A stretch of 11,381 nt of DNA from a virus (Duplodnaviria; Heunggongvirae; Uroviricota; Caudoviricetes). The stretch lies in the IMG/VR virus record IMGVR_UViG_2703718769_000013, positions 1 through 11,381 of that record; one strand, given 5' to 3'. How positions within the stretch are numbered: position 1 is the stretch's first letter; every line of letters begins with the position of its first letter. Positions 1,419 through 3,893 of the stretch are shown piece after piece. The notes under the pieces are model-generated. The model saw only the letters and a list, made by a program, of their open reading frames with translations, had not been told where the DNA came from and searched no databases. The position numbers and the translations under genes are program-made.

Positions 1419-3893
1419 TTAAAAATCAGCCTGACTCGGGATCAGTTTTTGCCAGATAACTGAAACGTATTTTGCCTGGTAACGGGCGTCATCAAGTGCA
1501 TTATGGCGCTCACCTTCGAATGGAATAGCCGTTCTGGCATCGAAGTCTATGGCTTTCCCCAGCTCAACGATTGTGCGTACATCGCGATCGTTGTAGTAAC
1601 GCCACGGGCAGGGGATCCCCTGCCGTTCGTATGAACGGCGCAAAATCGTGTTGTCGAAGTTGGCTCCATTTCCCCAGACCTGAACAAAAAATTCACCGGA
1701 GTTTTCGTCGATAAATTCCCGCAATTGTAACAGTGCATCATCTAACGGGATTTCATCGGTCATAATGGCAGATTGCGCTTCGCGTGATTGCTTAAGCCAC
1801 CATTTAATGGTGTCCCGATCAATGACTCCGCCAGCAGTTTCCAGATCGATAGTCTTACTAAATTCCGGTCCCATATCTCCGGTTTGCGGATCGAAAAATA
1901 TTGCACCTATTGAGATGATCGGGGCATCAGGATTTTTTCCCATGGTTTCAAGGTCGATCATTAGATGGTCACACGTCCTGCTGGTGGATGTGATTTCTTG
2001 ATGACTGTTCACCTTAATTGAGTGATCTGCCGTCTCGCCAGTTTCATTATCGCTATCGTGATGCTGATTGCCGCCAGTGTTCTCCTTGTGTGGATGTTCA
2101 GCGCCTTCCATTTTCTCCGGATCATCTTCCTGAACTTCAACCTGATACTCTTCATCGAATGTTTCCTGGTATGTTGCGTCGCCCATCACCGCGCCACAAT
2201 CAGGGCAGTTGCCGCCGTCGGTCTGACCGCAGGCGGTGCAGACTTTTTCCACTTCCTGTTGCGCCACTGGTTCAGGCTGTTTCGTTTCTGGCTCGTTTTG
2301 TAACGCATTTGGGCTGTTTTGTTCCGCTTTTTGGTAGTTCCGTTCCGATTCATGCTGGTTCTGGTTTACAGAATCGCGGGTCTGGATCCCCTTAACCCAT
2401 TTCGGATCATTCGGGTCGCTAATCCCTGCAACAAATTCTCCGCGAGAGGCAGCAAGCAACTTATCGGCGTCAGGCTGGCTGATATTGGCTGCCTGCATAA
2501 TTTTGTTTACTTCGTCAGCGGTAACTTTTACCGGCTCTGGTTGTGCGGTCGTGTCAGATGCACCAGTATTTTGTTGTGAACCTGAGTATGTACTGTTTTT
2601 GCGGGCGAAATATTCTTCTTTCGTGATTTCAGTAGCCCCGGCAGCCAGTGCCTTATCCAGACCAGAAAGTTTGTTTGCGCGACCGTATTTTTCGCCATCC
2701 TTGTCGGTGAAGAGGAAGTAGAACGGCCCCTCACGCTCTACAGATGATTCGACTTCCACTTTGCATTCGGTTTTTTCGTTGTCCTGAATTGCCGTTTCCA
2801 CTGCGTCAGTTTCTGGTACTGGCGACGAGAGAGTATTAGCTGTGCCCTGATTTGTTCCTTCGTCATCTTCAAACACGCCCTTTGTAGTCAGGTATTCAGT
2901 GATGTATTTGTTCAGTGCCACGGGATCTTTGTGAATGTCGATCGGGCGTTCACGGACAAGGCCAAAAATAGTCTGGCGGCTGTAGCGAAGCGCATCAGGT
3001 TGTTTGCGCATTGATGCGGAGATGCGCTTCCAGTCTTCGCGATCTCTGGCGATAATTTCATTTTTAGCCCAGCGAAGGATGCTGCCGTCAATGTTTCCGG
3101 CATCCGCATCACCAGGCCAGAGATAGTAGGCCAGCTCCCTGTCCAGGGTTTTCCATGTCTGCTTGTATTCGCGATGAATGGCGGCAGTTACAGGAGGGAT
3201 TTTTTCTGCTGGGTTTTCAGTGTGCTGTCGGTTGGCTTTGGCGCGGGCAAGATCAACAACAGACGTGTATTTTCCAGTCTCTTTGCGCTCTGCGTCCTGC
3301 CGTTTTTTCCAGTTACGTAATTCAGCCTGAATTTCGGGCCATTTGGTACCCGGCTTACATTTGTGTTTAACCCATCCGATAGCGAACAGTTTGCGTTCCG
3401 GATACATAGCGTTAATTTCAGGCGTTTTCATCAGTGCTTCAACGATATGCCCGTCAAAGGTAGCCACGTCTTCTTGCAGTAATTCCTGCGCGTCAATCGC
3501 CATATCAACGGTGATGTTTTCACATGTACCGAACTTAACTAGGGCCGCGTTCTGTACTTCAAGGGACAGCTTGTCAAAATTGACGTTAATAGGATCGGAT
3601 TCTGGTTCGACCGGAATAAAGGAAGCGGATTCCTCATCCCAGCGGTTTTCCTGCATATATTCGGTATCCCAGGAGTCGATAGCAGGGCGGGGCATGCCGG
3701 GTTTATCTTCGCAGACAAGAAATTTATAAGCGCAGTCCTGAGCAGCAGGATATTGCTCCAGGAATTGCCAGGTAAATTTGGCACGGGCGCGGCGTTCATC
3801 ACCGGCTTCAATGGCAGTGGCTACAGCAACTGCGCCCTCTTCTTTTATTGCCTGTTCGTCCGGAATGGCGGCGCAAATAAAGACTTTACTCAT
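1419..3893 (-). CDS. RecE-like prophage exonuclease (exodeoxyribonuclease VIII family) with C-terminal DEDDh (DnaQ-like) 3'-5' exonuclease domain
   Basis: 824-aa ORF, ATG at 3891-3893 with GAGGT upstream. The last ~180 aa carry the three DEDDh motifs directly visible in the translation: MIDLETMG (Exo I), VWGNGANFD (Exo II), HNALDDARY (Exo III). Central CxxC-x7-CxxC (CTACGQTDGGNCPDCG) and long acidic low-complexity linkers. The segment LLAASRGEFVAGISDPNDPKWVKGIQTRD matches what I recall of RecE-family prophage exonucleases (memory only). Sits between xis and the dicB module, where ydfE/recE sit in Qin/Rac. Confidence 0.7.
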   Translation of the reverse strand: MSKVFICAAIPDEQAIKEEGAVAVATAIEAGDERRARAKFTWQFLEQYPAAQDCAYKFLVCEDKPGMPRPAIDSWDTEYMQENRWDEESASFIPVEPESDPINVNFDKLSLEVQNAALVKFGTCENITVDMAIDAQELLQEDVATFDGHIVEALMKTPEINAMYPERKLFAIGWVKHKCKPGTKWPEIQAELRNWKKRQDAERKETGKYTSVVDLARAKANRQHTENPAEKIPPVTAAIHREYKQTWKTLDRELAYYLWPGDADAGNIDGSILRWAKNEIIARDREDWKRISASMRKQPDALRYSRQTIFGLVRERPIDIHKDPVALNKYITEYLTTKGVFEDDEGTNQGTANTLSSPVPETDAVETAIQDNEKTECKVEVESSVEREGPFYFLFTDKDGEKYGRANKLSGLDKALAAGATEITKEEYFARKNSTYSGSQQNTGASDTTAQPEPVKVTADEVNKIMQAANISQPDADKLLAASRGEFVAGISDPNDPKWVKGIQTRDSVNQNQHESERNYQKAEQNSPNALQNEPETKQPEPVAQQEVEKVCTACGQTDGGNCPDCGAVMGDATYQETFDEEYQVEVQEDDPEKMEGAEHPHKENTGGNQHHDSDNETGETADHSIKVNSHQEITSTSRTCDHLMIDLETMGKNPDAPIISIGAIFFDPQTGDMGPEFSKTIDLETAGGVIDRDTIKWWLKQSREAQSAIMTDEIPLDDALLQLREFIDENSGEFFVQVWGNGANFDNTILRRSYERQGIPCPWRYYNDRDVRTIVELGKAIDFDARTAIPFEGERHNALDDARYQAKYVSVIWQKLIPSQADF

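Follow-up and report, generated by a model that had tools for sequence, protein, structure and literature searches.

A DEDDh exonuclease domain on a YdfE-type scaffold in a Qin-type prophage operon, one of several interchangeable heads

Introduction

What does a phage enzyme do when its center resembles RecE but its nuclease is expected to work in the opposite direction and no annealase is encoded beside it? The question is raised by the gene at positions 1419 through 3893 (minus strand) of an 11,381-nucleotide stretch of DNA from a Caudoviricetes virus (Duplodnaviria; Heunggongvirae; Uroviricota; IMG/VR record IMGVR_UViG_2703718769_000013, positions 1 through 11,381), herein the window. The original prediction, made from the sequence and its open reading frames (ORFs), called the product a RecE-family exonuclease with a DnaQ-like DEDDh domain and proposed a role other than classical recombineering, for example in DNA end processing, anti-defense, or defense. 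We find that the gene belongs to a family in which one scaffold, in one genomic slot, is combined with three heads: a 5'-3' nuclease together with RecT; a 3'-5' nuclease alone, as here; and an annealase, often accompanied by Gp157. Three features appear to be undescribed in the literature searched: the swapping of heads on one scaffold, the strict tie of RecT to a single head, and a Rad52-like third head.

Results

A Mosaic Protein Ending in a DEDDh Domain

The gene is one intact ORF encoding 824 residues, with an ATG start and zero internal stops, and is matched from end to end by PHROG 2082. Judged by its sequence, the product is a mosaic of a YdfE-type scaffold, a RecE-like acidic linker bearing a cysteine knuckle, and a DEDDh head, because the match to RecE is confined to the center, the N terminus is of YdfE type, and the C terminus is of DEDDh type. 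An identical 824-residue protein occurs in public assemblies, where precomputed Pfam annotation assigns YdfE_N (PF27430), YdfE_C (PF27432), and the Rv2179c-like domain; the first two, also assigned to close homologs, are taken from this annotation, which is newer than the Pfam copy that we scanned directly.

The N-terminal module (residues 1 through 260; positions 3114 through 3893, on the minus strand like all parts of the gene) is of YdfE_N type. It consists of an α/β block and a helical block and is modeled by AlphaFold2 (AF2) with a predicted local distance difference test score (pLDDT) of ∼90. Over residues 1 through 256 it is 84% identical to the product of ydfE (b1577) in the Qin prophage of Escherichia coli K-12, a locus that has the same neighbors, dicB and ydfD, but is a pseudogene cut by IS2 and lacks the linker and the nuclease. 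This K-12 copy (L003, positions 5079 through 5999) is one of two decayed copies that we observed, the other being that of Shigella flexneri SFBU0723 (L036, positions 10001 through 12438), which carries many frameshifts and stops. The middle module (residues 261 through 440; positions 2574 through 3113) covers YdfE_C; in the AF2 model a helical domain, which RecE shares, is followed by a disordered, acidic segment (residues 344 through 384) and then by a small β-hairpin/helix domain (residues 390 through 435).

Similarity to K-12 RecE (exonuclease VIII of the Rac prophage) begins within the middle module. In BLASTP only residues 279 through 626 align, to RecE 294 through 591 (E = 3e-63, 41% identity), with the identity reaching ∼80% by eye over residues 470 through 626; the acidic linker (residues 441 through 630; positions 2004 through 2573) corresponds to RecE 433 through 591. 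With the NCBIfam model NF007259 (exodeoxyribonuclease VIII equivalog) the protein reaches 288 bits, well short of the cut-off of 1269, and only residues 445 through 626 match. Neither the N-terminal RecE domain PF06630 (Exonuc_VIII) nor the PD-(D/E)XK nuclease domain DUF3799 is matched by our protein in Pfam, whereas K-12 RecE matches them with E values of 6.1e-98 and 4.1e-28, respectively. The assignment to the RecE family is thus right for the noncatalytic center (residues 279 through 626) and wrong for both the YdfE-type N-terminal 256 residues and the nuclease. RecE resembles our protein further in its similar size and in its early-left operon slot upstream of xis and int, but it has the PF06630 N terminus, the DUF3799 5'-3' nuclease, and RecT as its neighbor, in place of the YdfE N terminus, the DEDDh domain, and no annealase.

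The linker holds the predicted cysteine motif with its acidic surroundings. A regular expression run on the translation locates C552-x2-C555-x7-C563-x2-C566 (positions 2196 through 2240), so that four of the protein's twelve cysteines fall inside 15 residues, and the 40-residue blocks beside them contain up to 30 to 33% Asp and Glu. RecE carries the same four-cysteine motif inside the aligned stretch, with acidic linkers likewise. Of 160 loci, 155 retain all four cysteines (78/80 of DEDDh type and 77/80 of RecE type; sampling described below), while the residues between them vary, with 11 sequence versions among the same loci. Constant cysteines with varying residues in between favor a real metal knuckle, putatively zinc-binding, over chance. 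No Pfam zinc-finger model is significant on the 824-residue protein. The CxxC-x7-CxxC motif is present in just 1 of 66 long family representatives clustered at 50% identity, so it is a lineage-specific, Escherichia feature.

At the C terminus, domain searches bear out the prediction of a DEDDh fold with all three motifs instead of a PD-(D/E)XK nuclease. Residues 643 through 814 (positions 1452 through 1967) are assigned to PF16473 (Rv2179c-like 3'-5' exoribonuclease domain) with E = 2.4e-67 and 226.5 bits, the cut-off being 27; the match spans profile positions 2 through 177 of 177, and Pfam RNase_T is a weak second match. The ExoI DxE (D647 and E649, in MIDLET), the ExoII D (D747, in NFD), and the ExoIII H-x4-D (H797 and D802, in HNALDD) are all present and correspond to D7, E9, D119, H186, and D191 of phage T4 DexA (exonuclease A). 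The only Protein Data Bank (PDB) chains reached by sequence are those of DexA (8KEL and 8KEN) and one weak match named "3'-5' exonuclease" (E ≤ 0.1 for the single protein, E ≤ 0.01 for the family profile).

Comparison with DexA and EcD

DexA, the best PDB sequence match (8KEL), belongs to the same Pfam family and shares the five catalytic residues; it differs in being a stand-alone protein of 227 residues from a virulent phage, with 25% identity over the domain and extra loops. The T4 record annotates it as a 3'-5' DNA exonuclease. A second characterized relative is EcD, a 189-residue E. coli homolog of DexA that digests T4 DNA, spares unmodified DNA, and protects against T4; it has been proposed as a defense nuclease specific for DNA containing 5-hydroxymethylcytosine (5hmC), termed HREX, and Escherichia is the main bacterial source of DexA homologs (PMC12153337). 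We recovered the EcD sequence from IMG/VR by means of the primers given in that paper; it has 189 residues, starts with MIDTET, and carries A78 as stated there. EcD is likewise E. coli-borne, is 37% identical to our head, and conserves the catalytic residues, but it stands alone, whereas here a scaffold of 640 residues precedes the head. EcD genes were also seen on viral or prophage contigs in IMG/VR (L008, L013, L023, L024, L026, and L029), so EcD may itself be phage-borne; no YdfE scaffold gene lies upstream at the EcD loci, where the upstream neighbors are unrelated.

A MAFFT alignment of five sequences (our head, T4 DexA, EcD, and two phage homologs) shows the five catalytic columns to be invariant. 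We infer the 3'-5' polarity of the head from DexA; exonuclease activity is predicted from the homology to DexA and EcD, and DNA is the presumed substrate. The same alignment, on which the positions depend, places the signature sites of the HREX proposal as follows: the tetramer contact DexA D90 is A78 in EcD and D719 here; the 5hmC-recognition residue DexA W152 is W132 in EcD and Y767 here; and the second 5hmC-recognition residue, DexA D169, is E145 in EcD and K780 here. By the residue criteria of PMC12153337, then, the aligned sequence is not of EcD type.

One Scaffold, Interchangeable Heads

When 1.84 billion representative proteins are searched with the N-terminal 349 residues, only 177 clusters match. 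On this scaffold the C-terminal head is interchangeable: among 65 long family members, 7 carry PF16473, 12 carry DUF3799, and ∼20 carry a third C-terminal domain that has no Pfam assignment. N termini of YdfE type or RecE type (PF06630) are found combined with either nuclease, and the middle module is seen in members with DEDDh heads, in those with PD-(D/E)XK heads, and in most of those with the third head.

The third head has the conserved motif KKSLTDAxKKALSxLGFSADV, which is reminiscent of the Rad52/Erf superfamily. Sequence methods fell short here: Pfam Rad52_Rad22 reached E values of only 0.03 to 0.05, a profile of the head matched no PDB sequence, and hhalign comparisons with single Erf, Bet, and RecT sequences fell below significance. 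Structure comparison identified the modeled domain as having a Rad52-like fold. These Rad52/Sak-headed paralogs (PHROG 2489) have the YdfE_N-type module, mostly the middle module, and the slot before xis and int in common with our gene; their PHROG label, "exonuclease", is evidently transferred from the scaffold. The Rad52-like-headed gene overlaps the start of an ORF of 164 to 193 residues in 40 of 80 IMG/VR loci, and four such ORFs that we sampled all encode Sipho_Gp157 (E values down to 3.6e-45). DEDDh, RecE-type, and lambda-Exo nucleases were absent by tblastn within 6 kb of the Rad52-like-headed genes. A stand-alone DEDDh nuclease (e.g., EcD) was considered as their partner and ruled out, the coupled ORF being Gp157. 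Taken with the two nuclease heads, these paralogs lead us to infer that the scaffold serves as a platform for recombination modules.

Codon analysis against five orthologs gives a ratio of nonsynonymous to synonymous substitution rates (dN/dS) of 0.12 to 0.13 for the N-terminal module at a synonymous divergence (dS) of ∼0.7, indicating purifying selection and clear constraint; the ratio is ∼0.26 for the middle module and 0.34 to 0.43 for the linker. The DEDDh segment is near-identical in DNA among the loci (dS ∼0.016), and dN/dS is therefore uninformative there.

Some family members match none of the three heads. The C-terminal regions of P0125, P0190 (PHROG 26058), P0259, and P0265, of 120 to 290 residues, match no head and no Pfam model and may represent extra head types. 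P0261 (756 residues) combines a RecE-type scaffold, a partial PD-(D/E)XK domain, and a RecT domain in one ORF; we considered it as a scaffold-RecT fusion and did not use it, as it is the one example, and read-through or a frameshift between the overlapping recE and recT genes is the probable cause.

The Annealase Follows the PD-(D/E)XK Head

The gene runs directly into xis, as predicted: its last base is 1419 and xis starts at 1366, 52 bases on, with no RecT- or Bet-like gene in between. A Pfam and PHROGs scan of every ORF from the repressor to int found no annealase, and RecT, lambda Bet, and an Erf have no tblastn match in the window.

To place this absence in the family, we compared the 80 IMG/VR loci closest to the linker region, with flanks of up to 10 kb, with the 80 IMG/VR loci closest to the RecE nuclease. 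The DEDDh head is present in 80/80 of the former, and RecT, Bet, Erf, lambda Exo, Gam, the single-stranded DNA-binding protein (SSB), and Abc2 are found in 0/80, within up to 10 kb; RecT is present in 80/80 of the latter. One of the 80 RecE-type loci has a YdfE N terminus and the dicB/ydfD context together with the RecE nuclease and RecT. In five genome loci, tblastn placed no RecT, Bet, or Erf near the gene. A scan of genome contigs, limited to one genome per species, gave five loci and was used for mosaics rather than for statistics. In Tritos and HannyBb, phages deposited as complete genomes that carry the gene, an annealase is neither annotated anywhere nor detectable by tblastn. The survey of related prophages that the original prediction had proposed thus turned up no RecT, Bet, or Erf beside DEDDh-headed genes, and neither of the two findings that it had named as refuting it was obtained.

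Two natural mosaics separate the head from its surroundings. In one (L034), an N terminus of RecE type is joined to a DEDDh head (99.5% identical to ours), followed by xis and int with no RecT. In the other (L035), an N terminus of YdfE type (85% identical) is joined to a PD-(D/E)XK head and followed directly by a RecT-family gene (E = 2.7e-44). RecT co-varies with the PD-(D/E)XK head, and because of the mosaics, the contrast of 0/80 with 80/80, and the two complete phages, we conclude that the annealase travels with this head and not with the scaffold or the operon.

A stand-alone relative of the DEDDh head was seen in phage Bas106 (L004, positions 4998 through 5546): Bas106_0031, of 182 residues, is 59% identical to our head. 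In the early-left recombination region of this phage, it separates abc2 from a group made up of an Erf-like annealase, SSB, and an endonuclease; unlike our protein, it has no fused scaffold and an annealase is encoded alongside. Members of the DEDDh family, then, do sit in recombination modules, which in some lambdoid/P22-like phages include an annealase.

Operon Context and Prevalence

On the minus strand the order is repressor (6306 through 6725), a DUF1391 gene, a 71-residue ORF, DicF, dicB, a ydfD-like gene, the exonuclease gene, xis, and int. The DicF small RNA (4540 through 4591) scores 77 bits with Rfam RF00039 against a gathering score of 48; dicB (4175 through 4363), encoding the cell-division inhibitor, matches Pfam DicB over residues 36 through 97 of its ORF (E = 3.6e-38); and the ydfD-like lysis gene directly upstream in the same operon (3987 through 4178) matches DUF1482 (E = 1.8e-19). 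Downstream, xis (1088 through 1366) is recognized by Pfam Exc (E = 8e-5) and by its position, annotated as excisionase in E. coli and phages, and the lambda-type integrase gene at the prophage end (1 through 1119) by Arm-DNA-bind_1 and Phage_integrase. Because DicF, dicB, and the ydfD-like gene lie upstream, the exonuclease gene is the distal member of a Qin-type dicB early operon, ahead of xis and int. The order dicF-dicB-ydfD-gene-xis-int is common to K-12 Qin, E. coli 07_3636, Tritos, and HannyBb.

Of 5426 complete E. coli genomes, a DNA search found relatives of some part of the gene in 4800 (∼88%); 3511 of the 5426 (∼65%) hold a place that covers at least 80% of it, at a median of two and up to nine places per genome with any. 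Carriers include Stx-converting phages. RefSeq names the product "exonuclease", "3'-5' exonuclease", or "3'-5' exoribonuclease domain-containing protein" (the last from the annotation pipeline PGAP), and phage records often name the gene "exodeoxyribonuclease VIII". The gene is not new as a sequence object, being ubiquitous in E. coli with its composition annotated, and since the domain content was already in public annotation, it is less new than the original prediction had assumed. The names often follow the scaffold and not the head, "exodeoxyribonuclease VIII" being applied to DEDDh genes and "exonuclease" to Rad52-like ones.

Discussion

A Possible Role in DNA 3'-End Processing

We place moderate confidence in reading the protein as an enzyme that trims or degrades DNA 3' ends in phage DNA-end metabolism and needs no phage annealase. 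The family context points toward a recombination or end-processing slot, not away from recombination. The host element would be a Qin/DLP12-type lambdoid prophage, and the gene would encode its DNA-end-processing enzyme. Upon de-repression the gene would, from its position, be expressed with dicF, dicB, and ydfD. Given the intact DEDDh site and the precedents of DexA and EcD, the head would take nucleotides off free 3'-OH ends by two-metal catalysis, and the scaffold would localize or oligomerize it, as it would the RecE nuclease and the Rad52-like head. A single 3'-5' nuclease would stand in for the cassette of 5'-3' nuclease and RecT, and 3'-end trimming during lytic development would serve recombination or end processing or, alternatively, clear 3' tails and linear DNA.

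Several considerations count against this reading. A 3'-5' nuclease leaves 5' overhangs, which are unfit for the classical Red/RecET mechanism, and the substrate may be RNA, the Pfam family being named after an exoribonuclease. Searches of PDB folds with the AF2 model of the scaffold gave no informative match, and literature searches returned no functional study of the protein or of any scaffold-fused DEDDh member. That DEDDh heads on divergent scaffolds are 99% identical reflects recent DNA sharing, not measurable selection, so conservation of the head is no independent evidence of selection. The two sets of 80 loci are close relatives and not independent lineages, and a handful of mosaics therefore bears most of the weight. 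Expression with the early-left dicB operon is presumed from the gene order and by analogy with the Qin dicB operon, and a scan for promoters and terminators around the gene stayed at the level of shuffled sequence, with no sign of a promoter of its own.

A broader version, which we hold only tentatively, regards the scaffold as a general platform that delivers swappable heads to a shared target (DNA ends, for example, or a host factor for replication or recombination), with the DEDDh version serving an uncharacterized annealase-independent 3'-end pathway. This would also explain the function of the N-terminal two-thirds of RecE. If it is true, the DEDDh pathway could be recombination opposite in polarity to Red/RecET, or it could neutralize DNA intermediates with 3' ends that arise in host recombination or immunity. 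The function of the N-terminal domain of RecE was still called unknown in a 2023 review, which reports that full-length RecE improves linear-linear recombineering (PMC11611040); this improvement hints at a role in DNA-end handling. The same improvement gives the N-terminal domain practical relevance. Three heads on one scaffold offer a concrete handle on what the scaffold does.

Alternative Explanations

Other functions of the head have to be weighed against 3'-end processing. Like EcD, it could guard the lysogen by degrading, from 3' ends, the modified (5hmC) DNA of T-even phages that superinfect it. EcD's protection against T4 and its 37% identity to the head speak for such a defense role, and many of the Escherichia DexA homologs counted in PMC12153337 may in fact be this prophage gene. 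We nevertheless consider defense unlikely. The EcD-defining residues are not conserved (D719, Y767, and K780), the gene occupies the far end of a repressor-controlled early operon and not the place of an independently promoted moron, its expression in a lysogen is improbable, the 824-residue protein draws no match in PADLOC, and the same scaffold bears recombination heads elsewhere. The HREX proposal is itself qualified if many of the "bacterial DexA homologs" of Escherichia are this gene, which does not have the EcD signature residues.

Host takeover or counter-defense, which we rate as less probable than defense, would have the nuclease degrade linear DNA of the host or of competitors to scavenge nucleotides, in the manner of T4 DexA, or remove 3'-ended DNA on which host recombination or immunity relies (such as 3' tails onto which RecA is loaded or DNA products of defense systems). 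The established role of DexA includes scavenging of host DNA, there is no annealase partner, and a variable head on a constant scaffold is seen in arms-race proteins; host ExoI (SbcB), a DEDDh 3'-5' exonuclease acting on single-stranded DNA, moreover suppresses a recombination pathway. The other heads on the scaffold, however, have constructive recombination functions, not destructive ones, temperate lambdoid phages are not known to degrade the host chromosome, and we know of no anti-defense protein of this family, no search of anti-defense libraries or literature having been made. Ranked lower again is an exoribonuclease that trims or degrades RNA 3' ends, be it of host or phage transcripts, of small RNAs (for instance DicF, presumably on the same transcript), or of short oligonucleotides in the manner of oligoribonuclease. 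PF16473 takes its exoribonuclease name from its founding member Rv2179c, a Mycobacterium tuberculosis protein, and the PGAP product name follows it. The closest structural neighbor of the DexA dimer is REXO2, an RNA exonuclease (PMC12153337). Against this, the PDB sequence matches are the exodeoxyribonuclease DexA and one weak "3'-5' exonuclease", DNA is the substrate of both close relatives that have been characterized, DexA and EcD, and the other heads are DNA recombination proteins. Very improbable, finally, is a functionless remnant, a mosaic left by illegitimate recombination in cryptic prophages. The pseudogene in K-12 and the copy full of stops in S. flexneri would fit it, as would the many partial database entries, but most of the latter stop at contig edges, as expected of a multi-copy gene. 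An intact ORF is seen here, at the loci where it was checked, and in Tritos and HannyBb, all catalytic residues are kept, and the N-terminal module has a dN/dS of 0.12 at a dS of 0.7.

Other Observations at the Locus

Between DicF and the 71-residue ORF, an ORF of 148 residues (4941 through 5387, plus strand) lies on the opposite strand within the early-left operon. Its match is to PHROG 6315, of unknown function, with nothing in Pfam or PADLOC; it is called as a gene in public assemblies and is a candidate moron. The gene after cro (7056 through 7481, plus strand) has conflicting annotations: Pfam YdaT_toxin in the public precomputed set versus PHROG 163, "CII-like transcriptional activator" (E = 1.3e-46).

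At five loci with an identical exonuclease gene (L201 through L205), the prophage is integrated beside a permease gene and a binding-protein gene of a polyamine-type ABC transporter, likely potC and potD, which lie downstream of int; next come SIR2 (cobB-like), ROK-kinase (nagK-like), and lol-type ABC genes. The names of the nearest phage records (PPompW phages) point to integration at ompW instead.

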